Counted from the first letter of the stretch, positions 3,092 through 33,486 are shown. The stretch is DNA of 33,486 nucleotides from Alphaproteobacteria bacterium (GCA_015228695.1 JADGDA010000001.1:16283-49768); one strand, 5' to 3'. Numbers and translations are program-made. The notes: generated by a model not told the origin, from the sequence alone.

Positions 3092-3095
3092 GGAG

Positions 3096-9453: not shown

Positions 9454-9455
9454 CG

Positions 9456-10715: not shown

Positions 10716-10728
10716 GGCCCGGCCCGCG

Positions 10729-11619
10729 TCATTTGACCCACGTTCCTTTCCGCACCGCTTGGCTCAGGTGGCGGACGTAGGCCCCGTAGCTGCTGTTGCC
10801 GATTCCGGCCACGCACCGGTGCAGGCCCTCGTCGTCGATGAATCCCATCCTGTAGGCGATTTCCTCCAGACAGGCCACGGTCAGCCCCTGGCGGTCCTCG
10901 ATGGCCTGCACGAAGATGGCCGCCTGCAACAGGGACTCATGGGTGCCGGAATCAAACCAAGCGTACCCGCGTCCCATTTCCTGCACCTGGAGCCGATCCT
11001 GCTTGATATAGGCCCGGATGAGGTCGGTGATTTCGGTTTCGCCCCGGGCGGACGGGACGAGTCCGGCGGCGGCCTCCACCACCTCGGGACCGAAGAAGTA
11101 AAGCCCGGTCACGGCCTCGTTGGAAATCGGCGTCCGGGGCTTTTCCACCACGTCGGCCGGCCGTCCGTCGGCGTCGCGGATCAAAACGCCATAGGCCTCC
11201 GGGGTCCGGGTCAGATAGGTGAAGATGGTGGCTCCGGCCTCCTGCGAGCGGGCGGCCTTCAGCAGTTCCGGCAGTCCGTGGCCGAAGAAGATATTGTCGC
11301 CCAGCACCAGGGAGCACCGGTCCCGGCCGATGAAGTCCCGCGCCAGGACGAAAGCCTGGGGCAACCCCTCAGGCTTGGCCTGAACCGCGTATTCGATGGA
11401 CAGCCCCCACGGCGAGCCGTCCCCCAGCAGGGCCTTGAAGTTCCCTTGATCCTCGGGCCGGGTGATCACCAAAATCTCGCGGATACCCGCCAGCATCAGG
11501 ACGGACAGCGGGTAATAGACCATCGGCTTGTTGTAGACGGGCAGCAACTGCTTGCTGACCCCCAGGGTCACGGGCCAGAGCCGCGTCCCCATGCCTCCGG
11601 CCAGAATGATGCCCTTCAT
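10729..11619 (-). CDS. rfbA: Glucose-1-phosphate thymidylyltransferase
   Basis: Inner part of ORF 10729..11916. ATG 11619 forms an ATGA overlap with the upstream stop. The 296-aa product begins MKGIILAGGMGTRLWPVTLGVSKQLLPVYNKPMVYYPLSVLMLAGIREILVI and also contains LGDNIF and YAWFDSGTHESLLQA, the classic RmlA signature. Confidence 0.95.
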   Translation of the reverse strand: MKGIILAGGMGTRLWPVTLGVSKQLLPVYNKPMVYYPLSVLMLAGIREILVITRPEDQGNFKALLGDGSPWGLSIEYAVQAKPEGLPQAFVLARDFIGRDRCSLVLGDNIFFGHGLPELLKAARSQEAGATIFTYLTRTPEAYGVLIRDADGRPADVVEKPRTPISNEAVTGLYFFGPEVVEAAAGLVPSARGETEITDLIRAYIKQDRLQVQEMGRGYAWFDSGTHESLLQAAIFVQAIEDRQGLTVACLEEIAYRMGFIDDEGLHRCVAGIGNSSYGAYVRHLSQAVRKGTWVK

Positions 11620-13736: not shown

Positions 13737-15784
13737 CCTTCCCCCGCCTCCCGGAATGACAGATCGCTCCGGCGCTTGATGTCGTTTTCCAGCGATTGGC
13801 CGACCTGGGCCGCGTCGAGCCTTCTCCGGTAGACCTGGAGGCATTCGAGCACCCGCTGGACGTAGTTGCGCGTCTCGCTGTAGGGGATCGTCTCGACCCA
13901 GTCGATCGCGTCGATATCGGGTTGTCTCGGGTCGCCGAACTCCCGGACCCACTGGCGCGCCCGCGCGGGACCGGCGTTATAGGCGGCGATCGCCAGAACG
14001 TAGGACCCCTCGAACGAGCCGATGAGATGACCCAGGAACGCCGTCCCCAGCCTCACGTTGTATTTCGGGTCCTGCGTCAGACGCTGCTTGGCGAAGGGAA
14101 GATCGAGGCTCTTGGCCATCTGCTGGGCGGTGCCGGGCAGAAGCTGCATCAACCCCAGGGCCCCGGCGCTGCTGACGGCGGCGGGAAGGAAGTTGCTTTC
14201 CTGACGGATCACGGACAGGACCAGGGCTTTCTCGGGGAGTTCCCCGGAAGCCTCGTCGATCACGGGAAAGCCGGCCTCGATCAGGGCCACGCCCTTCTGG
14301 GCCGCCCGCCGCGCCGCCGCGACGGTGGTGTCGGGACGGCCGTCGCGGGCCGCGAGCTTGACGGCAAGAACATGCTGGCCGGGAGTCCTGGCCAGTTCAA
14401 CCAGCCGCAGGACAAAGGGCCGGATCTGGTCGCGGGCGCCGACCTCGGCCAGCATCTCCACCACCCTGACCAGTTCGCCCCGGCCGAAGTCGGCGAGGTC
14501 TTCCTTCGTCGGAACGGGATCGCCCGGCAGGGACCAGGGCCGTCCGCCGCCGAGACGTTCCGCCGCAAGCTGGCCGTAATAGGACGTGAGGTGGTCCGCC
14601 GCGATCCGGTACCATTTTTCGGACTCGGCCTTGTCGCCCATCTCCTCGCTGGCGCGTCCGGCCCAGTAGGCCCCGCGCGAGCGGCTCATGGGGGAGGCGA
14701 CTCCGTCGAAGGCGCGCTTGAAATGCTTGAGCGCGGCGCCCTTCTCGCGCAGGGACCGAAGGGCGATCCATCCCGCGAGCCACTCGGCCTCGGCCAATTG
14801 CGCCCCCTCCAGCGGGCCGTGGGTCCGGGCGGCGTCGTAGGCCTGGGAGACATGCCCCATCCGAAGGAGTTCCCGCGCGAGGACGGACCGTTCCTTCCAC
14901 CAGAGCTGGGGACTTCCCTTGTCTCCGCCATTCCCCGGCAGGAGGGCGGCGGCGTCGATGTAAAGCTCCTTCTTGCGGCGCCAGCGTACCCGTTCGAAGC
15001 GCAGTCCGGGATCGTTCCTGAGTTCCGCCGGCACCTTGGCGACCGCCCCCTCGGCCCCCGCCTTCTGCCCGGCCAGGAGCATCCGGGCCTGGGCCAGCGA
15101 CCGGTGCCCCGGATCGACCCTGGACAGCATCCGGCCCGCATGGTCGAACCGCTGGTCCCACAACAGCCTGTCGAGGCGCGCCAGATGATCTTCCTTGCGC
15201 AGGCGGTGCCCGTGCAGTTTCAGAAACTGGCTCTCTTGGGTCGAGCCGAAGACGTCGTTGACCCAGGCGTCGCGGATCACCGCGGTCGCCTTATCCTCCC
15301 GTCCCGTGCCGGACAGGGCGCGCGCCCAGGCCATTTTGCCGTTGGGGGTGATCGGAGGATGCTCGATAAACCAGGCGAGAAGCGCCTCGTTCGGCTCCGT
15401 CAGCCCCAGGGCGTCCTCGGCCCGCCGCGCCAAGGCGTTCGGCTGGGGCCAGTCGGGGTTGTCGTGGGCAAACTCGGAAATTTCCTGGAACGACGCATCG
15501 GAACGGGGATTGACGTATTCCATCCACCGGAGCGTCTTGGCCAGAAGCTTGTCGTGGGCCTTGCGGGCCCAGGCGCGGGCCTCGCCCCATTTTTCCTTGT
15601 CGGCGGCGGCGAAGGCCGCGCGGTAAGCTTTCCGGTCGTCCTCGGACAGGGACCCCGCCCTCGCGGCCCCGGCAAGGCCCCCGGCAAGAACGGCGATCAG
15701 CAGAATGAACGACGCGGCAAGAACCTTCGGCTTCGGCACGATGGAGCCTCGCGGTGGGGGGCTGAAATCGGGAGCGCCCGCCAT
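13733..15784 (-). CDS. slt: Soluble lytic murein transglycosylase (Slt70-like), exported
   Basis: Inner part of ORF 13733..16369. The start is ATG 15784 (MAGAPDFSPPPRGSIVPKPKVLAASFILLIAVLAGGLAGAARA, signal-peptide-like), or the GTG a few codons downstream. The C-terminal lysozyme-like domain carries VIRQESNF, GLMQLLPGTA and AAYNAGP. Confidence 0.9.
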   Translation of the reverse strand: MAGAPDFSPPPRGSIVPKPKVLAASFILLIAVLAGGLAGAARAGSLSEDDRKAYRAAFAAADKEKWGEARAWARKAHDKLLAKTLRWMEYVNPRSDASFQEISEFAHDNPDWPQPNALARRAEDALGLTEPNEALLAWFIEHPPITPNGKMAWARALSGTGREDKATAVIRDAWVNDVFGSTQESQFLKLHGHRLRKEDHLARLDRLLWDQRFDHAGRMLSRVDPGHRSLAQARMLLAGQKAGAEGAVAKVPAELRNDPGLRFERVRWRRKKELYIDAAALLPGNGGDKGSPQLWWKERSVLARELLRMGHVSQAYDAARTHGPLEGAQLAEAEWLAGWIALRSLREKGAALKHFKRAFDGVASPMSRSRGAYWAGRASEEMGDKAESEKWYRIAADHLTSYYGQLAAERLGGGRPWSLPGDPVPTKEDLADFGRGELVRVVEMLAEVGARDQIRPFVLRLVELARTPGQHVLAVKLAARDGRPDTTVAAARRAAQKGVALIEAGFPVIDEASGELPEKALVLSVIRQESNFLPAAVSSAGALGLMQLLPGTAQQMAKSLDLPFAKQRLTQDPKYNVRLGTAFLGHLIGSFEGSYVLAIAAYNAGPARARQWVREFGDPRQPDIDAIDWVETIPYSETRNYVQRVLECLQVYRRRLDAAQVGQSLENDIKRRSDLSFREAGEG

Positions 15785-15896
15785 TCTAGGGAATTCCGCC
15801 CCGTGGCCGCAAGACCCGAAGACCCTTAAGTCTTGCCCCCCTGCCGGGACGGGGCTATCTTCGCCCGGCCATTGACCATCCGAGGCCGCCGCGGAC
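15785..15896. promoter_or_regulatory. Divergent intergenic region between slt (-) and the GT2 gene (+); presumed promoters
   Basis: This is the only non-coding gap between the two divergent transcription units. I could not assign any specific -35/-10 motif. Confidence 0.3.
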
Positions 15897-16895
15897 ATGG
15901 ACACAGAACCCCAAATCTCGGTCGTGATCCCGGCCTTCTGCGAGGCTGAAAGCCTTGAGGAACTGGCGGAACGCATCGCGGCGGTCCTGGAGGGACGGTC
16001 GTTCGAGGTCATTTTCGTGGACGACGGCTCCACCGACCGCACCCCGGAGGTGCTTCGCGGCCTGGTGGAGCGCATGCCGGAGGTCCGGGCGATCACCCTG
16101 CGCCGCAACTGCGGCAAATCGATCGCCCTGATGGCCGGATTCAGCCGCGCGGGCGGGCGGGCCGTCGTAACCATGGATGCCGATCTCCAGGATAATCCGG
16201 AGGACATCCCCTCCCTGCTCGCCGGTCTCGACCAGGGTTTCGACCTCGTCAACGGCCGCCGCCAGCGCCGCCATGACGGCATTGTCCGCACCCTCGGCTC
16301 GCGCCTGTTCAACGCGGCCGTCTCCCGCGCGACCGGTCTCGTCCTGCATGACTTCAACTGCGGCTTCAAGGCGTTGCGGGGAGAGGTCGCCTCGATGCTC
16401 TGCGTTTACGGCCAGTATCACCGCTACATCCCCCTACAGGCCCACCTGATGGGGTTCAAGGTGACCGAGGCCGAGGTGAGGAACAGCGCCCGCAAGTTCG
16501 GGACGTCCAAGTTCCGGGCCATGCGCTACGAGGGCCTGTTCGATCTGCTGTCGATGCTGTTCATCCATCGTTATGGCCTCAATCCGCTGCACTTCTTCGG
16601 CACTCTGGCGCTGTTGATGATCGTTCCCTCCGTCCTGATTTTGGGATACCTCGGGTTTGATTATCTGCTCCAGGTTCTGGACGTGGGAGAGGGGCACGTA
16701 CCCTTGAACCGTCCGCTGTTTTCCCTGTCCCTGACGACGCTTCTCATGGGGATGCTGGTGTTTCTGAGCGGTTTCATCTGCGATTTCACGCTGCACCACC
16801 ATATCCGCAACAACATGTCCGAGATTCTGGGACTGGTGACGCGGACCCCGGAGAAGACGGCAGCCCAGCCCGATCGGACCCACCATGACGCCTGA
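15897..16895 (+). CDS. GT2-family glycosyltransferase, polyprenyl-phosphate sugar transferase type (GtrB/ArnC/DPM1-like) with C-terminal TM helices
   Basis: ORF 15897..16895 with an ATG start. Motifs are ISVVIPAFCEAESL, VDDGSTDRT and the DxD motif MDADLQD. Two hydrophobic helices lie near the C-terminus (LHFFGTLALLMIVPSVLILGYL, LSLTTLLMGMLVFLSGFI). Confidence 0.9.
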   Translation: MDTEPQISVVIPAFCEAESLEELAERIAAVLEGRSFEVIFVDDGSTDRTPEVLRGLVERMPEVRAITLRRNCGKSIALMAGFSRAGGRAVVTMDADLQDNPEDIPSLLAGLDQGFDLVNGRRQRRHDGIVRTLGSRLFNAAVSRATGLVLHDFNCGFKALRGEVASMLCVYGQYHRYIPLQAHLMGFKVTEAEVRNSARKFGTSKFRAMRYEGLFDLLSMLFIHRYGLNPLHFFGTLALLMIVPSVLILGYLGFDYLLQVLDVGEGHVPLNRPLFSLSLTTLLMGMLVFLSGFICDFTLHHHIRNNMSEILGLVTRTPEKTAAQPDRTHHDA

Positions 16896-19326: not shown

Positions 19327-20418
19327 TCAGGCCGTTGTTGTTCGGTTCAGACGGGTGACGTGGCCCATCTTGCGGCCGGGACGCGCCTCCGTCTTCCCGT
19401 ACAGATGGAGCCGGGCTCCCGGTTCGGCCAGAATCTCCGGCCAGAGATTGAAATCGTCCCCGATAAGGTTCGTCATGACCGCGTCCGAATGACGCTCCGG
19501 CGACCCCAGGGGCAGGCCGCACACGGCGCGGACGAACTGTTCGAACTGATCGGTCAGGCAGGCATCCATGGTCCAGTGGCCGGAGTTGTGCGGACGCGGG
19601 GCCATTTCGTTGATCAAAAGGCGGTGGTCACGGGTGACGAACATCTCGACCGCGAGCAGGCCGACCAGATCGAGCGCCTCGGCCGACCGGCGGGCGGCCT
19701 CGATCGCCTGGAGAGCCAGGGATGGAGCCAGGACGGCGGGGGCGGTGGTGGTGTCGAGAATGTGGTTCGCGTGCCGGTTCTCGACCGGATCGAAAGCCGC
19801 CCAGGCGCCGTCGATCCCACGAGCGACGATCACCGAAATCTCGCGCTCGAAATCGACGAATCCCTCCAGGACGCCGACGTCCGCGCCGAAGCCGCGCCAA
19901 GCCCCGGCAAGGTCCGTTCCCGGATCGACGCGGACCTGCCCCTTGCCGTCATACCCGAGCCGGGTCGTTTTGAGAATGGCCGGAGCGCCGACTTCCGCCA
20001 CGGCCCGGCTCAGGGATTCGGGACCGTCCACCTCGCGCCACGGGGCCGTTTCCAGCCCGATGCCGTTGAAGAAGGCCTTCTCCCGCAGCCGGTCCTGGCT
20101 GATTTCCAGCGCCCTCGCCCCCGGACGCACCGGCACGAGGTCCGCCATCAGGCGAACGGCATCCGCCGGAATATTCTCGAACTCGAAGGTGACGACGTCC
20201 ACCTGGGCCGCGAACGCCCGCAGGGCCTTTTCGTCGTCGTAGGCGGCCACGGTGGCGGCGTCGGTCACGCGGGCGGCCGGGCTGTCGGCCTCGGGGCAGA
20301 ACACATGGCAACGGAGGCCGAGCCGCGCGGCGGCAAGGGCGGTCATCCGGCCGAGTTGGCCGCCGCCCAGGATTCCGATGATGCTCCCCGGAGGGAAAAC
20401 GGCGTCCTCGTGGGGCAT
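19327..20418 (-). CDS. purK: N5-carboxyaminoimidazole ribonucleotide synthase
   Basis: Inner part of ORF 19327..20541. The start is ATG 20418 (MPHEDAVFPPGSIIGILGGGQLGRMTALAAARLG...), 1 nt after the purE stop. It has ATP-grasp features and the C-terminal motif GRKMGHVT. Confidence 0.95.
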   Translation of the reverse strand: MPHEDAVFPPGSIIGILGGGQLGRMTALAAARLGLRCHVFCPEADSPAARVTDAATVAAYDDEKALRAFAAQVDVVTFEFENIPADAVRLMADLVPVRPGARALEISQDRLREKAFFNGIGLETAPWREVDGPESLSRAVAEVGAPAILKTTRLGYDGKGQVRVDPGTDLAGAWRGFGADVGVLEGFVDFEREISVIVARGIDGAWAAFDPVENRHANHILDTTTAPAVLAPSLALQAIEAARRSAEALDLVGLLAVEMFVTRDHRLLINEMAPRPHNSGHWTMDACLTDQFEQFVRAVCGLPLGSPERHSDAVMTNLIGDDFNLWPEILAEPGARLHLYGKTEARPGRKMGHVTRLNRTTTA

Positions 20419-20419
20419 G

Positions 20420-20911
20420 TCACGACGGGTCCACGGGAAACTCGGCCACACCCGCCGTGTTGTTCGCGCGCCAGGCGTCCAGGGCCGCCGCCACCTCGGG
20501 ATCGGACAGCGCCAGCACCGCCGCGGACAGCAGGGCGGCATTGACCGCCCCGGCCTTGCCGATGGCCAGGGTTCCGACCGGAATCCCCGCCGGCATCTGC
20601 ACGATCGACAACAGACTGTCCATTCCGCTCAGGGCCTTGCTTTCCACGGGAACGCCGAACACGGGGAGCGCGGTCATCGCCGCCGTCATCCCCGGCAGAT
20701 GGGCCGCGCCCCCCGCCCCGGCGATGATCGTTTTGATCCCGCGCCCACGGGCGTCGCGGGCGTAGTCGTAGAGCCGTCCGGGCGTCCGGTGCGCCGAAAC
20801 GATCCGGGTCTCGTGGGCGACCCCCAGCGCGCGTAGGGTCTCCGCCGCGTGACGCATGGTGTCCCAGTCGGACTGACTGCCCATGATGATGCCGACGACC
20901 GGTCGTTCCAA
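20420..20911 (-). CDS. purE: N5-CAIR mutase (class I PurE)
   Basis: ORF 20420..20911 with a TTG start and GGGGAG 6 nt upstream. Motifs are [18 protein letters not shown] and [10 protein letters not shown]. Confidence 0.95.
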
Positions 20912-21044
20912 CGTCGTCTCCCCGCAACAAGACCCCGGAAAAAGGAACGCGCATTATTGGGTACCGAAGAGGCGGACGCAAGAACGCCTTTCGGGCCGGC
21001 ATTCGTTCGGGTTCAAAACGCCGCTGAGGATCGCAACACCATAG

Positions 21045-21078
21045 GCGGCAAAGCGTTTCTCGCGGCAAAGCGTTTCTC
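21045..21078. repeat. Perfect 17-bp tandem duplication (GCGGCAAAGCGTTTCTC x2)
   Basis: Read directly: 21045..21061 equals 21062..21078. It lies in the gap between the purE upstream region and the 3' end of the AAA ATPase gene. Confidence 0.9.
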
Positions 21079-21092
21079 AAGGTCGGCCCGGG

Positions 21093-22265
21093 TCACGGTC
21101 TCGGCCCCAGCAAGGCCATCATCTCGGTGAGCCCGATGGCTTCAAGGCCATCTTTCAGCGGGTATCGTTCGGTACCAGGGTAGACCACGAAACGGGCGTC
21201 AGGCTTGATGTCGTCGCAGGCCAGCCAGAACCCCTTCGACGGTTGCGGCGCCAGGCTGCGTTTGATCTCGATGGCCCAAAGCCTGCCTGGTCCGATGGGC
21301 AGGATCAGGTCGATTTCAGCCCCTGCCGATGTCCGATAGAATCCCGCCTGAGCGTTGGAGGGGGCTGCTGCCAGCAGGTTCTCGATGACGTAGCCTTCCC
21401 AACTGGCCCCCGCCACTGGATGACCCAGGAGGTCGTCAAGGGTCTCCAGCCCCAGCAGTGTATGCACAATGCCGCTGTCGCGGACGAAGACTCGGGGGGA
21501 CTTGACCATCCGCTTTCCGGTATTGGACATCCACGGCGTCAGCCGCCGCACCAGCAGCAGGTCGACCAGGAGGTCGAGATAGCGGGCCACGGTGACGCCG
21601 GCGACCTCCAGGCCCTGGCCGATGCGAGCGGCGTTGAGCAGCCCCCCTTGTTCGTGGGCCAGCATGGTCCAGAAGCGGCGTAGGGTCTCGGCCGGCACAC
21701 GCGGCCCGAGTTGGGGGATGTCGCGCTCCAGATAGGTGCGGATGAAGGCCTGGCGCCACTCGGCGCTGTCGCGGTCATCCCGTGCCAGAAAACTGTCCGG
21801 GAAGCCGCCGCGCAGCCAGTGGCGATCCATGTCCCCGACGCCTTTCACCACTTCCCGCGCGTCAAAGGGCGTAAGTTCGAACGTGGCGATGCGCCCGGCC
21901 AGTGTCTCCGATGATTGCTTCAGCAGTTCGATGGACGCCGACCCAAGAAGCAAAAAGCGCCCGGAGCGCCTCCCTCGTCGTCTGCCCGCATCGATTAACC
22001 CGCGCAATGCCTTGAACAAATCAGGTGCACGCTGTACTTCATCGAGAATGACCAGCTTGTCTTCGTGGGCTGACAAGTAGAGTTCGGGTTCCGCCAGCTT
22101 GGCCAGATCGGAAGGCGCCTCGAGATCGAGGTAGATGGACGGGCGGCTCTCGCCGATTTCCAGCGCGAGCGTGGTCTTGCCACTCTGGCGTGGTCCGAGC
22201 AACGCTACCGCCGGATGGCGTTGGAGCAGGTTCTCGATGGCTGGGCGGTGACGGCGCTCGATCAT
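21093..22265 (-). CDS. AAA-type ATPase of the DUF4143/COG1373 kind
   Basis: Inner part of ORF 21093..22343. The start is ATG 22265 (MIERRHRPAIENLLQRHPAVALLGPRQSGKTTLA). Walker A is GPRQSGKTT and Walker B is LVILDEVQ. The C-terminal region is typical of DUF4143 proteins. Confidence 0.85.
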   Translation of the reverse strand: MIERRHRPAIENLLQRHPAVALLGPRQSGKTTLALEIGESRPSIYLDLEAPSDLAKLAEPELYLSAHEDKLVILDEVQRAPDLFKALRGLIDAGRRRGRRSGRFLLLGSASIELLKQSSETLAGRIATFELTPFDAREVVKGVGDMDRHWLRGGFPDSFLARDDRDSAEWRQAFIRTYLERDIPQLGPRVPAETLRRFWTMLAHEQGGLLNAARIGQGLEVAGVTVARYLDLLVDLLLVRRLTPWMSNTGKRMVKSPRVFVRDSGIVHTLLGLETLDDLLGHPVAGASWEGYVIENLLAAAPSNAQAGFYRTSAGAEIDLILPIGPGRLWAIEIKRSLAPQPSKGFWLACDDIKPDARFVVYPGTERYPLKDGLEAIGLTEMMALLGPRP

Positions 22266-22456
22266 CCTTGCAATTATGATATCGCATGGCAGAGTTGCAA
22301 GGATGAATTGGTGGGCGAGTGAATGACGGGAGGAGCATGGCATGGACGACTGGGATGTGCCCGGCGGTATCGATCTGAACGGCCCCCTGCCTCATCACAA
22401 GATTCTGGCCATCGAAGTGTCGGGCGGGGCAATGTCACGACGGTGACCTCCCGCGA

Positions 22457-22846
22457 TTATCGTTCGGCCAGCCAGTCGCGGACCTCGGGCAACAGCGCCT
22501 CGATGTCGGCCAGTGCGGCCTCGACGTCGCCCGGATCGGGCATGGCCGGGAACCAGCCGCCGGGGCTGGGGTAGCGCCACGCCGTGGCCGCCGCCGACAG
22601 GTTATCCAGGCCCAACAGATCTTCCTTGAAAACATGGCCGTCGGGAAGGGAGCCGGCGGCCTGCCCGATCTTGTGGGTGCGGCCGACGGCAAGCCCTTCG
22701 CCTTCGCAGACCGCCCGCGTTATCTTCTCCGCCGCCTGCTGGGCATGGAAGATCGCCTGATCGGACATTTCGGGAAGCAACCGCCGCGCGGCTTCAATGT
22801 TGCGCTCGGCGGCAATCATCAGGGCGGAGAGGCGCCGGTCTGTCAT
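22457..22846 (-). CDS. HEPN-domain protein (putative toxin partner of the upstream nucleotidyltransferase)
   Basis: ORF 22457..22846 forms an ATGA overlap with the NTase gene. The 129-aa helical protein has a FHAQQAAEK...GRTHKIG HEPN-like pattern. Confidence 0.7.
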   Translation of the reverse strand: MTDRRLSALMIAAERNIEAARRLLPEMSDQAIFHAQQAAEKITRAVCEGEGLAVGRTHKIGQAAGSLPDGHVFKEDLLGLDNLSAAATAWRYPSPGGWFPAMPDPGDVEAALADIEALLPEVRDWLAER

Positions 22847-23388
22847 TGGCTGACCGCCCGACCGCGCCAGCGGTCACGGAAAGGGGAGCCGGGGCTGGCA
22901 TACAGCAACCGGCCCTCGCTGTCTGCGGCATGGGCAATTGTGCCGGGCCGTTGCCGTTCGGCCTCGAAATCGGCAAGGCGGCAGGGCACGACATCGACGC
23001 CGATGCCGCAGCCCGCCACCGGCGCATAGGCGGCGTAATAGTCCGGGGGACCGCTTTCGTCGTCGGGCAGGATGACCAGAAGGTCGAAATCACTGTCCGG
23101 GCGTGCCGATCCGGCGGCGCGGCTGCCGAACAGGAAAAGCGCCACCGGACGGAGCGCCGTCTTGAGGCGTCCGACCAGGAACGACAACGCCGCGTCCTCG
23201 TTGCGGAACGGGCCGATGTTGCGGATCGCGGTGTCGCCACCAGTTCCCGAAACCAGAGACGGCCGCGTGCGGATGAATTCCAGCACGGCCGCCGTCATGC
23301 CCGGATCATCCTTGATGGCGTTGACGAGTTCGCGGACGGCCTGTTGCCGATCGGGTTTCACCCGGAAGGTGATCGTGGGGGTGGACAT
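22843..23388 (-). CDS. Minimal nucleotidyltransferase (MNT-like) with an N-terminal extension of about 85 aa
   Basis: Inner part of ORF 22843..23601. The start is ATG 23388 (MSTPTITFRVKPDRQQAVRELVNAI...) with GGAG 8 nt upstream. The NTase motif is LFGSRAAGSARPDSDFDLLVIL. Confidence 0.8.
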   Translation of the reverse strand: MSTPTITFRVKPDRQQAVRELVNAIKDDPGMTAAVLEFIRTRPSLVSGTGGDTAIRNIGPFRNEDAALSFLVGRLKTALRPVALFLFGSRAAGSARPDSDFDLLVILPDDESGPPDYYAAYAPVAGCGIGVDVVPCRLADFEAERQRPGTIAHAADSEGRLLYASPGSPFRDRWRGRAVSQ

Positions 23389-23494
23389 GGAGGACGCTCC
23401 GACCTTGTGACACAGACTTTCACATATGTAATACGCTGTCGTGACACAGGCAAGAGCTCGTATGGCCATGGCAACTGCGCTCGGTCGACCGGCC

Positions 23495-23870
23495 ATGACC
23501 AGGAACGCAAGGGAGTATGAGAGCACGAAGAACTTCATCCAGACCGGCCACATGATCACCGTCCCGGCCCCGGCTGTCGGCATCGCCTCGGGCCAGGGCA
23601 TGATCCGTCGGCGGGCTGTTCGGCATCGCCGCCACCAACACGCCGGAAGCGGCCAATGTGGAAATAGCGACCACCGGGGTGTACGATTTGCCGAAGGCTC
23701 CAGCGACGGTGTTCGCCCTGGGCGACCGGGTGGCCTGGGATGACACCGCCAAGGTGATCGCCCCGCCTGCTGCCGGGCTGTATCCGGTCGGCGTCGCCAT
23801 TACCGCCGCTGGCAATGGCGCCGTCGCCGTGCGGGTGCGTCTGGATGGGGTGGCGACGGCTGCGGCGTAA
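23495..23870 (+). pseudogene. DUF2190-family (phage head-associated) gene disrupted by a 1-nt frameshift
   Basis: ORF 23441..23743 gives ...STKNFIQTGHMITVPAPAVGIASGQGMI, and ORF 23658..23870 gives VEIATTGVYDLPKAPATVFALGDRVAWDDTAKV.... Dropping one C at about 23605/23606 joins them as GMIVGGLFGIAATNTPEAANVEIATTG..., a full DUF2190-like sequence. The second frame is closed by TGA at 23601. Confidence 0.65.
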
Positions 23871-23899: not shown

Positions 23900-24871
23900 C
23901 TAATCGGCCCATTTTGGCTTTCGTGTCCGTGGCCCGAAGACATTCGAAAAGAGAAGGACCTCTCCCTGTGCGCCGGGCAACCGAGACGTCTGTAATACCG
24001 GCGACACGCCTGCATGTTCACAAATCAACGCCTCTTGACCACTTTTTTGAGCGAACACCGCTTCATAGGCGAAGCGACATATCTGGCGGTTCATCATTTC
24101 TACGCTCTCGGAACTGGACAAGTCGCCATATCCAAAACCATGTATTGCAAATTGCTCTCGCATAGACGAATGCCCATAAATCACGCAGTCTGGGGCCACA
24201 GGAAAAATGAAAACGAGGGGTGTTCCTGGTCGCCATACATATGGCCGCATTTCGGTTTCTGGAACGGACGGATCAAACCAGATTACCGGGTTATCGCTGG
24301 TCAGGAGGGGGATGTCGGTCTTGTTGTGCAATGCGCCCAGGCCGATCTCAGAGAATACGCGGTCGATACCATCCATGAGCGGTTTCATCTCCAGAAGGGA
24401 CTGATGCGGATCAATTGCAACCTCAAGATGATCAAGGATGTCGCCATGGCCCGGCGGCTTGGGGGGAAGCAACCCGCTGGCATCCATAACCCGTGTGGTA
24501 GACATCACCTGCTCTGCCCGTATCCTCTCGATCATATCCCTCGCAGCTGGCACGCGCGCTCTCTGAAGCGCAATGAAATCGAGAAGCACCCCGAGGCTTT
24601 CAGAATCACCGATGTCATCTCCTCGACGGAGGCCATCGACCAACGGAGGCCATTTCGACTCAAGCTTTGAGAATAAGTCCTCCAAGCAGTTGTCTCGACC
24701 GCCATCCTCAGACGGTTGGGAATAGTAGTATTTGTGAAATCCGAAATTGTCCGGCGATTGGCAAATGATTTTCTCTGGCTCATCCTTTCGATACACACGA
24801 AGTCGCCCCTGACCATCACAAAATGGTCTGAGGTAGGCCCTCGGCACATAATGGTGACGCTTCTTGTTCAT
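23900..24871 (-). CDS. DUF4238-domain protein
   Basis: ORF 23900..24871 with an ATG start. The N-terminal HHYVPRAYLRPF motif is typical of DUF4238. GC is markedly lower than in the surroundings (by eye). Confidence 0.85.
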   Translation of the reverse strand: MNKKRHHYVPRAYLRPFCDGQGRLRVYRKDEPEKIICQSPDNFGFHKYYYSQPSEDGGRDNCLEDLFSKLESKWPPLVDGLRRGDDIGDSESLGVLLDFIALQRARVPAARDMIERIRAEQVMSTTRVMDASGLLPPKPPGHGDILDHLEVAIDPHQSLLEMKPLMDGIDRVFSEIGLGALHNKTDIPLLTSDNPVIWFDPSVPETEMRPYVWRPGTPLVFIFPVAPDCVIYGHSSMREQFAIHGFGYGDLSSSESVEMMNRQICRFAYEAVFAQKSGQEALICEHAGVSPVLQTSRLPGAQGEVLLFSNVFGPRTRKPKWAD

Positions 24872-25029
24872 TTCGCCGCAGCACCACCGGGCAGTACGAG
24901 TGACAAATGGTCTCGCAAGATATAGCTATCAATCGTGCTGTTCAAACTCGCAGATTGCCTGTTGCAGAGCGCTCGAACTGGCGGCATGGCTTCCGAGGGG
25001 AACGTATCGGCAAGGCATGGCGCCGCCGA

Positions 25030-25245
25030 TCAGGTTGCGTGTTCCCCTTCGTTGAAGGCCGAATCCGTGATCCGCTTGAGGAGTTCGGCGTAGTGGCCGA
25101 GGGTGCCGACGTGGCCCCAGTTGATCTCGTCCGGGGCGTACCCGAAGTGGTCGGCGCTGGCGGCCGCGAGGCGCGCCAGCATGGCGTCGATCTCGGCCTT
25201 GCGGGCGATGAAAGCGGCGAGGGCGGAATTCTTGGTCTTGGGCAT
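25030..25245 (-). CDS. 71-aa hypothetical protein (MPKTKNSALAAFIARKAEIDAMLARLAAASADHFGYAPDEINWGHVGTLGHYAELLKRITDSAFNEGEHAT)
   Basis: Inner part of ORF 25030..25443. The start is ATG 25245 with GGAG 7 nt upstream. It has helical, non-shadow composition. I have a vague recollection of similar small ORFs in alphaproteobacterial mobile regions, which is unverified. Confidence 0.5.
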   Translation of the reverse strand: MPKTKNSALAAFIARKAEIDAMLARLAAASADHFGYAPDEINWGHVGTLGHYAELLKRITDSAFNEGEHAT

Positions 25246-25511
25246 GGTGGGCTCCGTTCGTGGTGCCCACATGACGGCGTTGAACCACCGCCCAAGCAAG
25301 TCCAATCTGCTGACACAACGTTGACATGGCGACTTTCCGTGCCCCCCGGATGTGGGCCTCGGAGCAACGCCCCTCGCCGCGAACACCATGGCAACATCGG
25401 CAGATTTCCATGTCGCATCCGTGTTGCACGGAATCGCCGTCACCGTCCGTAACTGTTTGGAATCGCGCGGTTTCGCGTTGTGTTCTTTTGCAACACGATC
25501 CCGGACATAGA

Positions 25512-29632: not shown

Positions 29633-32600
29633 TCATCTGGTCTTCAGTCGAAACGTTCCGTGTGCCCGCCAGAGCGCCTGCAGGGTCGGGATGTTCTCGC
29701 GCCCCCCGTCACCGCTGGTCAGTACGGCCAATGCGCTCCCCTTTAACCCTACGTTCTCAAGAATGCGCAGGTCTGGAGCGACCTCTTTCCCCAAGCGCTT
29801 GAGATAGGCAAAGGTTTCTCCGCAATCATCCACTGTCGCAGCAACAATTCGGTCCTCAAGGCAACGAATTTCTTCCGGTGTTGTGTTCTGTACGGCCTCA
29901 AGCAGCACAATGTCGCCGCTTCGGATGACCGGATAGGCGCTATCATCGGTCACACGGGCAGCCACGAGATTCTTCTCCAGTATCTTGCTGGCATCGATCA
30001 GGCAGGCTTCTTCCTTCCCGCCAAAGTTTTCCTGATCATAGAGGACTCCAATGATCGGCAGCAGCCGGGTCTTTGCCCTCGGCAACACCAATGTCGGCGG
30101 CACTCTCTCCGTTCCGGTCCGGTCGCAGGCGAGAACGACACGTGACGGGTCACGCCGGTCTCCCAGCAGCAGCCGTAGGTAAATCTTGCCGTCGCTCAGC
30201 GCGACCACCGGATCGCCGTCGTCGGCCTCCTGGTCAAGAGATACGATGACCACCTGCCCCTGAAGGGCGAAGGAGCCGAGCCCCGGCGACCTGACACCAT
30301 ACAGGGCGACTTCGCCCAGCTTGCTCATGTCGAAAGACTCGTCCGCCTGCGCCAGTGCCAGCACGTTCACGCTGCTCCGGGCGCTCACTTCCCCAAGCAA
30401 CGGGAACTGCTTTAGGGCGAGCATTGCCAGCGCGGGGGCGGGCGGCGTATCGATGAGGAAAAGGTCCCGGTCTTCTCGCGTCAGCCGTCCCATGAAACGC
30501 GCATACGCTGCGGAACAGCTTCGCAACAACCGGTCAATCTGGTCGAAGACCTCCGAGACCTGTCCCGCCTCGAAGGGCGTGATTTCATGCAGGCGATGAT
30601 GCGCTTTGTTGATGATGGTGTAGAAAGGCGCCGTGTCGCGCAGCGCCATGTGCGAGAGCAGTGTCTCAAATGGCGTTTCGTCAAACGGCCGCTCTCCATT
30701 GTTCCGCGCCGAGCGGAGAGCGTTGACCAGATCAGCCAGCGTCGGCTTATGCAGGACCATGGGGTCAGTCGCCAGCAGGTCCCAAAGCCGGTTCTCGACA
30801 TACAGCCTGACTTTGCTCACAAATTGCTGTGCTTTTGCTGCATTGTTATCATCGGCTTGCCAGTCTTTTCGCAGTTCGAAAATCTCTTCGGCCGCAGGGC
30901 TGAGCGCTGCCGTCAGACGCGAGCTTGAGATCGGATTTATCACCAGGGCGTGCCATGAGGGCACGTCGGTGGATTGCCGGGGAAGTTTGTCCCTTATGGC
31001 TGCGAGGAACCGGTAATCATTAGAGGTGATCACCGGGCGCATATCTTGTGCCGGCATCTGAGGAATTGCCGCTGCCAAGTTCTCCGCGTTTATTGGATCA
31101 AAGTGCGTCTGGGGATCATCAAGCAGCATGCAGTCGATTCCGCCCGCGTTCGACCGGACGCGTTCCCACAGGCTGAAGACGAAGGCCCACACACACGCCC
31201 GCAGCAAAGAGGCGTTCATGATCTCGTGTGCCGACACCTGCATGTCACCAATCCCTGCGCGCAGGCCAATGCCCTTTTCTTCCGTGGCGTCGAATCCGCT
31301 GTAGCTCGGGCCGCCGCGATAGTGCGGACTGTAGATCCTTCCAAGCCACTCTTTCGTTCCCCGGTCGAGAATCTGAATCAGACCGGACACTTGCTGAAAC
31401 ACCAGCGCCTCAAAGCCCGCGAACTCATCCATCGCGTCGGCGGCCCGATCAATGAGCCCGAGCCGTTCCATGAGAGCTGCGTACTGCTTACGGGTTGTTT
31501 CGAGCTCGTCGAGCTGACGCAGCAGGGATACGATGGGCGCCGTGTTCTCAACACACATCCGCAGCGTCTCGATCTGGTCGCGCAGGGGCAGCTTGTCCGG
31601 CTGAGTGTCCCCTACGCCGGAGACCTTGGCGCTTCCGGTTTCAGGCTGACTTGGCGCTCCGATATAGCGCTCGACGAACTTCTTGAGGGCATCCGCGCTG
31701 GCGGAGCGATGTCTCGAGATCCGGATCGCCTGAACGATGTTCCCGACTCGTGTAGCAAGCATCCCCGCCTTGAATTCGTCCGGCCAGTTCACCGACTTTG
31801 CCGCAGGCATGTCGGGCAGCGCGGCGGCGGTAACCGCTTCCTCCCAAAGAACCACAGCATTGCGTTTCAAAGCCTGAATCCGGCCCTCGAATGTCCGGTC
31901 AGCCAGTAGTTCTTCCAGATATGCCTTGCGATAGATTTGCAGCAGGCCGGCAGGAGGGGCCTTGTCCGCGAACGCTCGCAGGTTTTCCGGCAGCCTCTCC
32001 AGGAATTCACGGGCTGCATCCTGTTCCCACTCCTGGACGCCTTTCGCAGCGTCCGCATCGGCCTCGGCACACAGCCACAGCGCTTCTTTTACGCCCTTAT
32101 CCACCAGTGCATCAGGCGGAACTTTCTCCAGGTCTGTGCCGCAAACCGGGCAGTTCTCCAGTTCAGCGCCGTCATGATGTTCGCGATGCCACGCGGCAAC
32201 CCTCGCATAAAGCTGCCACCTTGCTGCCTCCTGCTTGTTTCTCAGCCGCTCCGTGACGGCTGCTGCGCGCGAGACCATATCCTCTATCAGAGACTCCCCC
32301 GCGCCAATGTCACCATCGGTAACGCCACGCAGACTCTTGATGAGGGCAACCGACGGCAATCCGCCCAGCGCGCCCGGCTTGAGCAGATCAGTGGCAGCAC
32401 GCAACTGTTGCAGTATGCTGTCAACATCCTGCCTGGAGGCCAGTTGCAGCGCTTGCCCCAGGATCGTTTCTGCGGCGCTCTCAAGGCCTTTCTTCTTTTC
32501 CTCAAGCCACTTTCGCGCATCCGAGATCGAGTTTTTGGACTGACCCTTGCTCGCCTCTTCATCCGGCGCGACCACGCTAGCCGGGTCGCTGAGGTCCGGC

Positions 32601-33442
32601 TGAGCGGACCATGCATCCTGAATGGTCTGCCGCTTTCGCTTGAATTCTCCCAGCGTCTGGCTCGCGTCCGTCTGAGATTTCTTTCGCTCATCGGTCCTGA
32701 ACCGCTTGACCACTCTCGTGGACCTGCGGCCCAGGTCCTCCAGCGGTTTCAGGCCGGTTAGCTGGGCGACGGCCTGCGCAAATGTCGTCTTCTCGTCAAA
32801 GCGCATATGTGCGGCAATTCCGGGCAAGAGCGTTCCCGCCTCGACAGCAACCTCGGGAATGGAGAGGTCTTCAAGCCCGGTCACGGACATGCTGATCCTG
32901 CCGCGCTCGTTCACGCCCAGGGCCCGCCGCACGACGCATATGTCGTTCGATCCTTCTGCATGGAATGTCAGTTGCGCCCAGGTGTCGATTCTAGGCTGAT
33001 CACCAAGGGCTTCAAGTTCTGCACCCGATGGGATCGGGACAATCGGTGGAAGCGAAAAGCCGTGTTCTTTGCCCTGAGTCTCATCTTCGCCGTCACCTGC
33101 CGTCCGGAACACCTCCATCGGCTCATGCACGTCGTCAGGCATATGCTGCGAGCGCAACGCTTTGCCTGTCAGGCACCAGATGATCACATTTTGCAGGGCG
33201 GTCTTGCCGGCACCGTTGAAGCCGCTGATCAGGGTTACGTCGCGCTCGATGTCAAGCGCGAAATCATCAGGGGCCTCGCCCTGCGCGTTGCAATGCCTGT
33301 GCAGCCCGGCAATCCGGTGCGCTTCGACGCGTCTCAGTCTCCACAGCCGCTTTGGCGCGGGGGAAGCACCCTTTATCTCTTTTGGAGCAGGGGCCTCCTC
33401 AGCGAGCGCCTTCAGTATGTCCTCGATTTCGCGGGCCTGCAC
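29633..33442 (-). CDS. Giant SMC/Rad50/RloC-like ABC ATPase with a mid-coil CxxC motif, fused to two C-terminal LexA-type (S24) peptidase-like modules
   Basis: ORF 29633..33442 (1269 aa). The listed start is GTG, and the frame stays open to the right window edge (..FYSRHRDLWPRSKT upstream), so the true start may lie beyond 33486. Walker A is GFNGAGKT (33200..33223), CPVC lies at 32141..32152 and Walker B-like CMLLDD at 31115..31132. The S24-like modules lie at about 30038..30325 and 29657..29980. Confidence 0.85.
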   Translation of the reverse strand: MQAREIEDILKALAEEAPAPKEIKGASPAPKRLWRLRRVEAHRIAGLHRHCNAQGEAPDDFALDIERDVTLISGFNGAGKTALQNVIIWCLTGKALRSQHMPDDVHEPMEVFRTAGDGEDETQGKEHGFSLPPIVPIPSGAELEALGDQPRIDTWAQLTFHAEGSNDICVVRRALGVNERGRISMSVTGLEDLSIPEVAVEAGTLLPGIAAHMRFDEKTTFAQAVAQLTGLKPLEDLGRRSTRVVKRFRTDERKKSQTDASQTLGEFKRKRQTIQDAWSAQPDLSDPASVVAPDEEASKGQSKNSISDARKWLEEKKKGLESAAETILGQALQLASRQDVDSILQQLRAATDLLKPGALGGLPSVALIKSLRGVTDGDIGAGESLIEDMVSRAAAVTERLRNKQEAARWQLYARVAAWHREHHDGAELENCPVCGTDLEKVPPDALVDKGVKEALWLCAEADADAAKGVQEWEQDAAREFLERLPENLRAFADKAPPAGLLQIYRKAYLEELLADRTFEGRIQALKRNAVVLWEEAVTAAALPDMPAAKSVNWPDEFKAGMLATRVGNIVQAIRISRHRSASADALKKFVERYIGAPSQPETGSAKVSGVGDTQPDKLPLRDQIETLRMCVENTAPIVSLLRQLDELETTRKQYAALMERLGLIDRAADAMDEFAGFEALVFQQVSGLIQILDRGTKEWLGRIYSPHYRGGPSYSGFDATEEKGIGLRAGIGDMQVSAHEIMNASLLRACVWAFVFSLWERVRSNAGGIDCMLLDDPQTHFDPINAENLAAAIPQMPAQDMRPVITSNDYRFLAAIRDKLPRQSTDVPSWHALVINPISSSRLTAALSPAAEEIFELRKDWQADDNNAAKAQQFVSKVRLYVENRLWDLLATDPMVLHKPTLADLVNALRSARNNGERPFDETPFETLLSHMALRDTAPFYTIINKAHHRLHEITPFEAGQVSEVFDQIDRLLRSCSAAYARFMGRLTREDRDLFLIDTPPAPALAMLALKQFPLLGEVSARSSVNVLALAQADESFDMSKLGEVALYGVRSPGLGSFALQGQVVIVSLDQEADDGDPVVALSDGKIYLRLLLGDRRDPSRVVLACDRTGTERVPPTLVLPRAKTRLLPIIGVLYDQENFGGKEEACLIDASKILEKNLVAARVTDDSAYPVIRSGDIVLLEAVQNTTPEEIRCLEDRIVAATVDDCGETFAYLKRLGKEVAPDLRILENVGLKGSALAVLTSGDGGRENIPTLQALWRAHGTFRLKTR

Positions 33443-33486
33443 GGTCTTGGAGCGCGGCCAGAGATCGCGGTGACGAGAATAGAAAG

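Follow-up and report, generated by a model that had tools for sequence, protein, structure and literature searches.

A truncated gene for a single-chain fusion protein

The window, i.e. the whole stretch of 33,486 nucleotides that was analysed, carries at one end a minus-strand open reading frame with a stop codon at 29633-29635, which stays open to position 33484, the window edge. Since its homologues are 1,332-1,358 aa long and the closest one (P0001, 90% identity) has 1,338 aa, the window lacks residues 1-55 of a protein of ~1,338 aa, and neither the corresponding 55 codons nor the promoter is contained in it. The 1269-aa product given in the original prediction is therefore an artefact. 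Residue numbers used here refer to the translation of window positions 29636-33484 on the minus strand; full-length numbers are obtained by adding 55 (the offset found by comparison with the homologue) and those of the original prediction by subtracting 14. The product is composed, in this order, of a Rad50/SMC-type ABC ATPase, an orphan helical domain of ~140 residues and two beta modules resembling the C-terminal domain (CTD) of LexA. The features are as follows.

29633..33486, minus: 5'-truncated gene of the Rad50-like ATPase / S24 fusion, residues 56 to ~1338 of the full protein present (open frame and homologue lengths)
33350..33484, minus: residues 1-45, C-terminal part of a conserved ~100-aa N-terminal extension (alignment consensus conserved family-wide)
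32735..33349, minus: residues 46-250, N-terminal lobe of the ABC/Rad50 head (Pfam AAA_23 and SMC_N; Rad50 profile matches)
33200-33223, minus: residues 88-95, Walker A GFNGAGKT in the N-terminal lobe; N90, G93 and K94 invariant
31385..32734, minus: residues 251-700, long helical, coiled-coil-like insertion (predicted from helical composition and apolipoprotein-type matches)
32141-32152, minus: residues 445-448, CPVC zinc-hook motif inside the insertion, midway between the head lobes
30920..31384, minus: residues 701-855, C-terminal lobe of the ABC/Rad50 head (second stretch matched to Rad50 C-lobes); N757, R762, D789 and D796 invariant
31199-31216, minus: signature-like NASLLR in the C-terminal lobe
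31097-31129, minus: residues 786-796, Walker B/D-loop MLLDDPQTHFD, 690 residues downstream of Walker A
30467..30892, minus: residues 865-1006, orphan helical domain, ~140 residues, strongly conserved (AF2 pLDDT 88.4, pTM 0.83)
30806-30808, minus: invariant R893 of the helical domain
30596-30601, minus: invariant H962/H963 of the helical domain
30041..30409, minus: residues 1026-1148, module 1, LexA-CTD-like pseudo-protease (profile and hhalign to LexA)
30377-30388, minus: cleavage-site-like strand V-S-A↓R of module 1, with the invariant Ala1035 at 30380-30382
29651..30007, minus: residues 1160-1278, module 2, S24 peptidase domain with intact dyad (Pfam PF00717 and invariant dyad)
29939-29941, minus: Ser1182 of module 2, in DDSAYP
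29798-29800, minus: Lys1229 of module 2, in AYLKRLG

Every sequence feature listed in the original prediction was present where it had been placed, and the central claim, that a Rad50-like ATPase is fused to LexA-type modules, holds according to Pfam, profile searches and AlphaFold with Foldseek. The N-terminal extension (residues 1-45) had no match in the Pfam scan.

Conservation was assessed in 72 full-length members, with identity down to 18%, and in 104 close homologues. Among the 72 members 19 of 1,283 columns are invariant, almost all of them occupied by residues of catalytic motifs; the set includes K94, N757, R762, D789 and D796 of the ATPase head, C445 and C448 of the hook, R893 and H963 of the helical domain, and A1035, S1182, P1185 and K1229 of the C-terminal modules. 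A search with a C-terminal profile yielded at least 274 clusters at 50% identity, from Proteobacteria and Planctomycetota. All full-length matches were 1,254-1,387 aa long with the matched region at the C-terminus; the architecture is fixed and the fusion is thus obligate.

The ATPase head, the hook and the helical domain

The head was recognized by the Pfam family AAA_23 (30.1 bits, cut-off 27) as well as by SMC_N, and the PDB sequences best matching the family profile were Rad50 heads, over both lobes (E=2e-12 to 1e-10). Walker A, Walker B and the D-loop are invariant in the family; the signature-like motif has the form NASxLRA. The distance of ~690 residues between Walker A and the Walker B/D-loop, noted in the original prediction, is 690. 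The coiled coil that carries the CPVC motif is predicted from helical composition only; the motif is the same as the CPVCG hook of Rad50, and both of its cysteines are invariant (72/72), so that the CxxC conservation to be looked for among homologues was indeed observed.

As in Rad50 and SbcC, a long helical insertion with the hook motif at its centre divides the ABC head; the protein differs in its degenerate signature, in the N-terminal extension and C-terminal domains, in its mobile and patchy occurrence and in lacking a partner, as neither Mre11/SbcD nor another nuclease was found as a conserved neighbour at 55 loci. Orthology with Rad50/SbcC is not indicated by the NCBIfam Rad50 equivalog, which scored 23 bits (cut-off 1,087).

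RloC and PrrC are likewise single-chain ABC ATPases, the state of which is believed to control an output domain at the C-terminus; they are linked to defence and, in the case of RloC, have a Rad50-like CxxC hook. The analogy with RloC drawn originally stands for the ATPase and the hook; it fails for the anticodon-nuclease domain, which is absent, and Pfam and NCBIfam gave no AAA_13 or RloC-type match. Instead, the C-terminus is helical with tandem S24 modules, and the protein is much longer than PrrC.

With Lamassu (the SMC ATPase LmuB and the effector LmuA, with or without LmuC) the protein shares an SMC-family ATPase found in defence islands and, in concept, an ATPase sensor controlling a separate output module, which is a protease in some Lamassu subtypes. 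One of several PADLOC LmuB models matched residues 235-817 weakly (41.6 bits, E=2.3e-11), the others having E≥6e-4, while none of the PADLOC models matched the C-terminal 428 aa. Unlike Lamassu, it is a single polypeptide with a Rad50-type hook and with neither an LmuA nor an LmuC gene; in an all-vs-all comparison of ±3 neighbours at 55 loci we found no conserved partner gene at all. The family has no curated name, in agreement with the earlier statement that no named defence family has this fusion.

A helical linker of about 200 aa had been proposed to follow the Walker B motif. This region is in fact made up of the C-terminal head lobe and the conserved 140-residue domain, whose invariant residues R893, E897 and H962/H963 are located on different helices. 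No fold match to this domain was detected by Foldseek in the PDB or BFVD (E>0.3), and no sequence match in Pfam or among PDB sequences. HEPN was considered and rejected: Foldseek matches to HEPN toxins were sub-threshold (probability 0.13-0.21, E>1), the Rx4-6H motif is absent, Pfam was without a match and hhalign against the HEPN protein of the window itself gave a probability of 0.9%. Pfam, PADLOC, and fold and sequence searches against PDB/BFVD revealed no recognizable toxic or nuclease effector in the C-terminal part; the helical domain may itself be an effector, or else serve in docking.

Two LexA-like modules, one with an intact dyad

The AlphaFold (AF2) model of the last 428 residues (mean pLDDT 88.3) shows the helical domain and, after it, two beta modules. 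In the Foldseek comparison with the PDB the top 24 matches of this model were all LexA, CI or hybrid repressors (probability 0.99-1.00), and the UmuD fold was also matched; the best E-value was 2e-4, and CTD-only targets had TM ~0.6 and rmsd of 3.2-3.7 Å, the tool not reporting which module was aligned. By these data the C-terminal modules have the LexA-CTD beta-fold. The S24 fold expected in the original prediction is therefore present, and the Pfam family Peptidase_S24 (PF00717) exceeded its cut-off in the whole-protein scan with a modest score (26.1 bits against 23.3, residues 1169-1232); module 1 alone scored 13.9 bits. Precomputed PF00717 assignments were found for ~45 of 120 homologues among the matches listed.

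The distal module keeps both catalytic residues, as had been claimed (S1168 and K1215 in the earlier numbering, here S1182 and K1229): they are invariant in all 104 close homologues and all 72 distant members, and P1185 in 72/72. The invariance of the dyad is far beyond chance. Module 1 was matched by profile to the LexA CTD of Pseudomonas aeruginosa (E=2e-4) and to Escherichia coli LexA (E=3.6e-4, hhalign), its serine being replaced by glycine (or by other residues across the family) and its lysine by arginine (R1104). Thus, of the two self-cleaving modules predicted, the LexA-like fold stands for both and the catalytic residues for one; the distal module alone is predicted to be catalytic, and the proximal one seems to be a pseudo-enzyme carrying the substrate loop. 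Aligned by hhalign, the two modules have no significant mutual similarity (E=0.034).

One could suppose that these modules are catalytically silent structural or dimerization domains and that the resemblance to the dyad is a relic, considering that the Pfam score is merely 3 bits over threshold and that the module 2 profile did not retrieve LexA from PDB sequences. Yet serine, the adjacent proline and lysine account for three of only 19 invariant columns in a family reaching down to 18% identity, module 1 has lost exactly these residues, and the motifs of module 2, G-D-S-A-x-P (family consensus) and Y-L-K-R-L-G, the dyad being kept as GDSA and YLKR in 72/72 members, agree with the canonical S24 motifs G-D-S-[MA] and φ-x-φ-K-[KR]-L. 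We regard this supposition as scarcely credible.

The likeness to LexA, UmuD and lambda CI (family S24, clan SF) comprises the beta-fold, the Ser-Lys dyad in its motifs (G-D-S-[A/M] and φ-x-φ-K-R-L) and an [L/V]-A-A strand aligned with the VAA↓G cleavage site of LexA. Ala1035 is present in 72/72 members and is paired by hhalign with LexA Ala84, the P1 residue of that site; the family form of the strand is [L/V]-[A/S]-A↓x, with the consensus L-A-A. In the search for an Ala-Gly or Cys-Gly scissile bond, the strand aligned with V-A-A of LexA was found to reside in the inactive module 1, with F, R, A or L at P1', where LexA, CI and UmuD have glycine; the putative scissile site is thus non-canonical. 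The loop after the strand has lower pLDDT (69). Only ~20 residues precede the Ser strand of module 2. Small residues are also conserved in another motif, G-E-A-V (residues 1158-1161, Ala in 62/72), which may be an alternative scissile site. The layout recalls the CTD dimer of LexA-type proteins, with the difference that enzyme and substrate loop appear to be split over two non-identical modules, and that a 1,000-residue ATPase takes the place of the DNA-binding wHTH/HTH N-domain.

The invariant dyad would also suit a protease effector whose target is a different protein, be it a host factor or a repressor or structural protein of a phage; module 1 would then be a pseudosubstrate inhibitor or a scaffold resembling a dimer. 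To our knowledge, S24 enzymes cleave almost exclusively themselves or a dimer partner, which speaks against such a role, as does the invariant alanine at the LexA P1 equivalent, most simply explained by a real scissile site. On the other hand, no other effector domain was found in Pfam and PADLOC searches, the non-Gly P1' would be in keeping with a pseudosubstrate that binds and is cleaved poorly, and Lamassu-family systems, which can have protease effectors, provide a precedent (bioRxiv 10.1101/2022.05.11.491447). We consider cleavage of another protein quite unlikely.

In a RecA-triggered switch along the lines of the original model, the S24 module would behave like that of LexA, CI or UmuD: RecA-ssDNA filaments, formed when DNA is damaged or a phage replicates, would serve as co-protease, and self-cleavage would then activate or inactivate the ATPase. 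The S24 fold and dyad are conserved in the family, and all characterized S24 autoproteases of the LexA/CI/UmuD fold known to us respond to activated RecA. Complexes of RecA filaments with LexA or CI (8gms, 8gmu, 8trg and 8s7g) were among the top Foldseek matches, so the fold is compatible with interaction with RecA. Against this model, the protein has a DNA-sensing ATPase of its own, which would make an external DNA-damage sensor redundant, and its P1' residue is not glycine. No SOS boxes were found upstream at 30 loci, which shows only that the gene is not obviously regulated by LexA. A RecA trigger has, in our view, a real but minor chance of being correct.

Genomic neighbourhood and a possible mode of action

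In the window the gene adjoins an IetAS pair (IetA, 3.6e-74; IetS, 1e-39), the downstream gene being the convergent IetS. The location in a defence island beside IetAS is thus confirmed; the description of the island as tRNA-borne is unsupported within the window, as neither a tRNA nor any other Rfam family was found there. Homologues, too, lie amid defence and mobile-element genes, on ICEs, plasmids and islands. Their defence neighbours include IetAS, TIR proteins, type I/III RM, GajB-like (Gabija-like) helicases, DRT reverse transcriptases, Septu PtuAB, SoFic, Shedu and PDC candidates; integrases and relaxases are frequent. The fusion gene was found on 24 plasmids, and none of 50,697 phage records contained it.

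Such surroundings could also befit a housekeeping or mobile-element factor of DNA metabolism (Rad50/SbcC-like end processing, maintenance of ICEs or plasmids) with its level limited by autoproteolysis. The best ATPase matches are heads of the DNA-repair protein Rad50, integrases and relaxases often adjoin the gene, and some homologues lie in ordinary chromosomal contexts without defence neighbours, which counts against an immune reading. In addition, the L-A-A neo-C-terminus that a cut would leave resembles the degron through which ClpXP recognizes cleaved LexA, suggesting control of turnover. However, a conserved nuclease partner is missing at the 55 loci, the gene occurs patchily among Proteobacteria and Planctomycetota, with a variable position inside elements, and the gene occupies the cargo region of islands rather than core transfer genes; moreover, bona fide defence systems recur beside homologues in independent lineages (raw counts, without a background rate). 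A role outside immunity appears very unlikely to us.

The reading that we tentatively prefer, at somewhat short of an even chance, is a stand-alone, horizontally mobile immune-type sensor in which the ATPase gates inter-module autoproteolysis after Ala1035. The Rad50-like ATPase, with its two lobes, the long coiled coil and the CPVC hook, would be the sensing part; the hook should dimerize the protein, and the ATPase would probably recognize a DNA structure made by the invader, for instance DNA ends or intermediates of replication. The C-terminal head lobe carries the helical domain, pseudo-protease module 1, with Ser and Lys lost and the LexA-type cleavage strand kept, and S24 module 2, with the dyad intact and no long cleavage-site region of its own. 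Active module 2 would then cut the strand of module 1 after Ala1035 (~Ala1090 in the full protein), either in the same polypeptide or between the subunits of a hook-linked dimer, as UmuD2 does; head movements dependent on ATP or DNA would set the moment at which the strand gains access to the active site. Being irreversible, the cut would act as a switch that splits the ATPase and helical part (~120 kDa) from the tandem S24 part (~27 kDa) and thereby releases or activates an output.

The idea that proteolysis links a signal of DNA damage or infection to the onset of immunity is shared with CapH/CapP and other protease-gated defence regulators; there, a metallopeptidase cleaves a separate repressor, leading to transcription, whereas here an S24 Ser/Lys enzyme is joined to the sensor. 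In the defence catalogues and literature searched, no description was found of a Rad50-type DNA-sensing ATPase and a LexA-type protease switch combined in one chain.

Extent of the gene and its place in the island

The target gene lies at the right end of the window on the minus strand and ends at 29633. The GTG at 33442, listed as its start, gives the 1,269-aa product of the original prediction; still, the frame is open through the final complete codon in the window, almost all of the best 120 homologues are 1,332–1,358 aa long, and the closest homologue (P0001, 90% identity, 1,338 aa) aligns to the target from P0001 residue 56. Thus, judging from these comparisons, the gene is cut by the window edge, and its first 55 codons and its promoter are both located beyond it. 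Residue numbers below refer to the translation of 29636–33484 (minus strand, 1,283 aa); 55 is to be added for full-length numbering.

The GC content of the window falls from about 0.69 to 0.55–0.63, with 0.55 around 24–26 kb. The island has the following features.

Features of the island in the window
19327–20911, housekeeping genes purK/purE, left edge of the island
21093–22343, PDC-S01-type AAA_14/DUF4143 ATPase (3e-92)
22843–23601 and 22457–22846, MNT/HEPN pair
23900–24871, DUF4238 protein
24907–25452, orphan 181-aa ORF, no Pfam or PADLOC match
next in order, IetA and then IetS
29633–33486, minus strand, target gene, convergent with IetS

The proximity of an IetAS pair was correctly noticed in the original prediction, as IetA and IetS do adjoin the target gene. 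The island had also been described there as tRNA-borne, a description that we had to drop: scans of the window detected neither a tRNA nor any Rfam RNA, and at the left edge (∼20911–21093) we saw neither a tRNA nor an integrase gene nor evident att repeats. By analogy with a homologue locus (L007), the integrase of the island is probably situated to the right of the window.

Elsewhere in the window we observed an array of at least five paralogous tandem genes with TPR and Glyco_transf_41 domains (O-GlcNAc-transferase-like; 818–13952, minus strand), interrupted by a TPR-only ORF (9456–10715) and an NTP_transferase gene (10729–11916). Beyond the array there are genes for an SLT transglycosylase (13733–16369) and a GT2 protein (15897–16895).

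Domains of the target protein

Single-sequence searches of the PDB with the N- or C-terminal half of the target produced no useful match, therefore profiles were needed. The features on which the analysis relies are these.

Features of the target product (residues)
88–95, Walker A motif GFNGAGKT
445–448, CPVC, inside ∼450 helical residues separating the ATPase lobes
757–762, signature-like NASLLR
787–796, Walker B/D-loop LLDDPQTHFD
865–1006, helical domain (AlphaFold model)
1026–1148, module 1, beta (AlphaFold model)
1160–1278, module 2, beta (AlphaFold model)

A profile of 72 diverse members of the family (full-length homologues of the target) found the Rad50 heads of Thermotoga and Pyrococcus, with matches in both lobes (E=2e-12 to 1e-10), and SMC, RecF and PtuA as weaker matches. 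The target itself was matched by Pfam AAA_23 with 30.1 bits (cut-off 27), and SMC_N also matched its Walker A region; the Rad50-like ATPase, first recognized from the sequence alone, is confirmed by these searches. Residues N90, G93, K94, N757, R762, D789 and D796 are invariant family-wide. The CxxC pair, whose conservation had been in question, is invariant as well; we take CPVC to be the same motif as the Rad50 zinc hook.

While the head lobes and CPVC are alike in Rad50 and the target, the target has no Mre11/SbcD neighbour and stays far under the NCBIfam equivalog cut-off (23 bits versus 1,087), and we rejected it as a Rad50 orthologue. One of the PADLOC LmuB models matched residues 235–817 (E=2.3e-11); PADLOC matches to PbeC, DndD and PtuA were restricted to the P-loop. 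Overall, the target could not be placed in Rad50, Lamassu or RloC.

The C-terminal 428 residues were modelled by AlphaFold with a mean pLDDT of 88.3 (104-sequence alignment). The top Foldseek matches of this model in the PDB were only the catalytic domains of LexA, lambda CI and UmuD (probability 1.00, best E-value 2e-4); catalytic-domain-only entries gave a TM of ∼0.6 and an rmsd of 3.2–3.7 Å. Together with the Pfam Peptidase_S24 match to module 2 (26.1 bits, cut-off 23.3), this bears out the S24 fold initially proposed, and most of the tests for S24 membership were positive. The module 2 motifs D-D-S-A-Y-P (family consensus G-D-S-A-x-P) and Y-L-K-R-L-G correspond to G-D-S-M and T-V-K-R-L of S24, and no substitution of S1182, P1185 or K1229 occurs in any of the 104 close or 72 distant members. 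The predicted Ser/Lys dyad is thus conserved, which is to be held against a rival reading in which the S24-like domains are inert. Searches of module 2 also included a profile search of the PDB, where LexA was absent from the matches, and an hhalign match to a single LexA sequence, which covered 13 residues and was discarded as spurious.

Two LexA-type modules had been predicted; both are LexA-CTD-like, but only module 2 has the dyad. The module 1 profile matched the P. aeruginosa LexA CTD (E=2e-4) and E. coli LexA (E=3.6e-4), while at its catalytic positions Ser is replaced by Gly or is variable and Lys is replaced by Arg (R1104, 68/72). The two modules have no significant similarity to each other by hhalign (E=0.034), which argues against a recent tandem duplication. 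The first strand of module 1 aligns with the cleavage-site region of LexA (V-S-A-R in the window over V-A-A-G in LexA; family consensus L-A-A-F/R). A1035, aligned with the P1 residue of LexA, is invariant in all 72 members, being one of only 19 invariant columns protein-wide, and is followed by a loop with reduced pLDDT (69). From these alignments we characterize module 1 as a pseudo-S24 that keeps a LexA-type cleavage strand. Only ∼20 residues lie ahead of the Ser strand of module 2; the conserved G-E-A-V preceding this strand (Ala in 62/72 members) is a second, weaker candidate for a cleavage site. A rival reading is that the module 2 protease acts on a hetero-substrate, to be weighed against a candidate site present in the chain itself and, at A1035, invariant.

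The helical domain was modelled confidently (pLDDT 88.4, pTM 0.83) and has invariant residues R893, E897 and H962/H963. It had no Pfam family match, no PDB sequence match and no fold match by Foldseek against PDB and BFVD (E>0.3). HEPN toxins appeared only as sub-threshold Foldseek matches, and hhalign did not relate the domain to the HEPN protein encoded in the window; with Pfam, PDB, BFVD and hhalign all negative, we rejected assignment to HEPN or any known family. An orphan domain, it is the sole unassigned part that could serve as effector or docking surface, and it may be a new effector.

Distribution and neighbourhoods of the family

The C-terminal part, run as a profile against 1.84 billion representatives, collected no fewer than 274 clusters at 50% identity (204 at E≤1e-10). 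All full-length matches are 1,254–1,387 aa long with the match always at the C-terminus, from which we conclude that the fusion is obligate and old; shorter matches resemble contig fragments. Carriers are Alpha-, Beta- and Gammaproteobacteria, including P. aeruginosa (45 contigs), other Pseudomonas, Burkholderia and rhizobia, as well as Planctomycetota (Gimesia, Phycisphaerales). Source annotations read ‘AAA family ATPase’, ‘ATP-binding protein’ or, wrongly, RecF, LexA or EcfA2. Of 72,556 plasmids, 24 carry a member, and most of these 24 are conjugative or mobilisable; of 50,697 phage records, none has one.

The P. aeruginosa copy is ICE cargo, adjoining a TraI_2 relaxase and an integrase at tRNA-Lys; downstream of it are two CAP12-PCTIR TIR genes, then ParDE. 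In a P. veronii IncP plasmid a pair of SLATT and reverse-transcriptase genes precedes the homologue, and in M. extorquens pCMU01 (L044, 13710–17618) Shedu and an S8 peptidase are near it. Among 119 neighbouring genes (±3 positions, 24 genomes) PADLOC identified PDC-S31, SoFic, PDC-S04, TmtA, type I/III RM, GajB-like and DRT RT genes, and Pfam identified integrases and transposases. A scan of metagenome loci, with an alignment of one subclade as query, added 71 neighbours of distant members, with two Septu pairs, methyltransferases and one further IetAS pair. IetA/IetS are located directly downstream of a metagenome homologue of ∼25% identity (L069:7001–10665), and the 90%-identical homologue has an integrase on one side and, on the other, the IetAS pair known from the window; the association may be either a coincidence of islands or a recurrent link.

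All-versus-all BLAST of neighbours at 55 loci detected no partner conserved beyond near-identical elements. In 5 of the 55 loci a gene for 260–300 aa is immediately upstream on the same strand, with a weak DUF2971 match in two; this gene might serve one subclade as an accessory partner.

Upstream genes for 260–300 aa
L011:6994–7893
L019:6282–7181
L020:6282–7181
L028:6359–7144
L038:2858–3664

In Oceaniradius stylonematis two overlapping ORFs (194 and 207 aa; L001:8797–10001) precede the homologue and a 79-aa ORF (L001:14001–14240) follows it, all on its strand; these three small ORFs had no Pfam match and were not seen at other loci.

Judging by plain counts of neighbours and by the lack of a conserved partner, the target gene behaves as single-gene cargo travelling with defence systems. 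This company has to be set against the rival reading of a non-immune role in DNA metabolism; at least one homologue locus, in Rhizobium viscosum, is of ordinary look. That the protein fits no named defence family, as first stated, holds: the C-terminal part is not represented by any model in PADLOC v2, and the protein as a whole falls under no curated family of NCBIfam or Pfam. The architecture is undescribed in the full text searched, with a passing mention possible in the ABC-ATPase survey of Krishnan et al. 2020 (NAR 48:10045). On its domain composition we class the target as a putative new variant of SMC-family, ATPase-gated defence, distinguished by a LexA-type autoproteolytic module.

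A possible proteolytic switch

Invariant residues are present in each of the four parts: hook ATPase, helical domain, module 1 and module 2. We propose that the hook would dimerise the protein, that the Rad50-like ATPase would sense DNA, and that module 2 would cut the module 1 strand after A1035, within the chain or across the dimer; UmuD2 cleaves across its dimer. Engagement of the ATPase heads would gate access of the strand to the module 2 active site, and cleavage would irreversibly split off the tandem S24 modules from the ATPase with its helical domain.

A rival reading, that of the original prediction, is self-cleavage dependent on RecA*, the RecA-ssDNA filament. In textbooks, S24 autoproteolysis is the switch behind the SOS response and prophage induction, and to our knowledge all studies of it have dealt with small repressors cleaved under the action of RecA*. 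Upstream of 30 homologues we saw no consistent SOS box (CTG-N10-CAG; GTTC/GAAC-N7 direct repeats).

The cut after A1035 (window 30380–30388, residues 1033–1035) is predicted to leave a C-terminus V-S-A, or L-A-A in most members. Cleaved LexA exposes a ClpXP degron on its N-terminal fragment, and L-A-A resembles both this degron and the ssrA tag. One could speculate from this likeness that the switch might time its own removal via ClpXP.

The complete reading is of a bacterial single-protein immune sensor of a class not recognized before, in which detection of invader DNA by the zinc-hook ATPase would lead, independently of RecA, to the irreversible cut of module 1 by module 2, freeing the helical domain (invariant R/E/H-H) or the ATPase as an effector of a new type, with L-A-A as ClpXP timer; we put it forward tentatively, as a reading that is rather unlikely to be correct in full. 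Testable predictions for the family bear on K94, C445/C448, A1035, S1182 and K1229, and the ICE-borne member from P. aeruginosa offers an experimentally tractable copy.

The family is large and widespread, with members on ICEs and plasmids in Pseudomonas aeruginosa, Burkholderia, rhizobia and Planctomycetes, and would hard-wire the S24 switch to a DNA sensor of the Rad50 type. If the model is true, there would be a second trigger route for LexA-type cleavage and a new output logic for SMC-family immunity (Lamassu, Wadjet, RloC).
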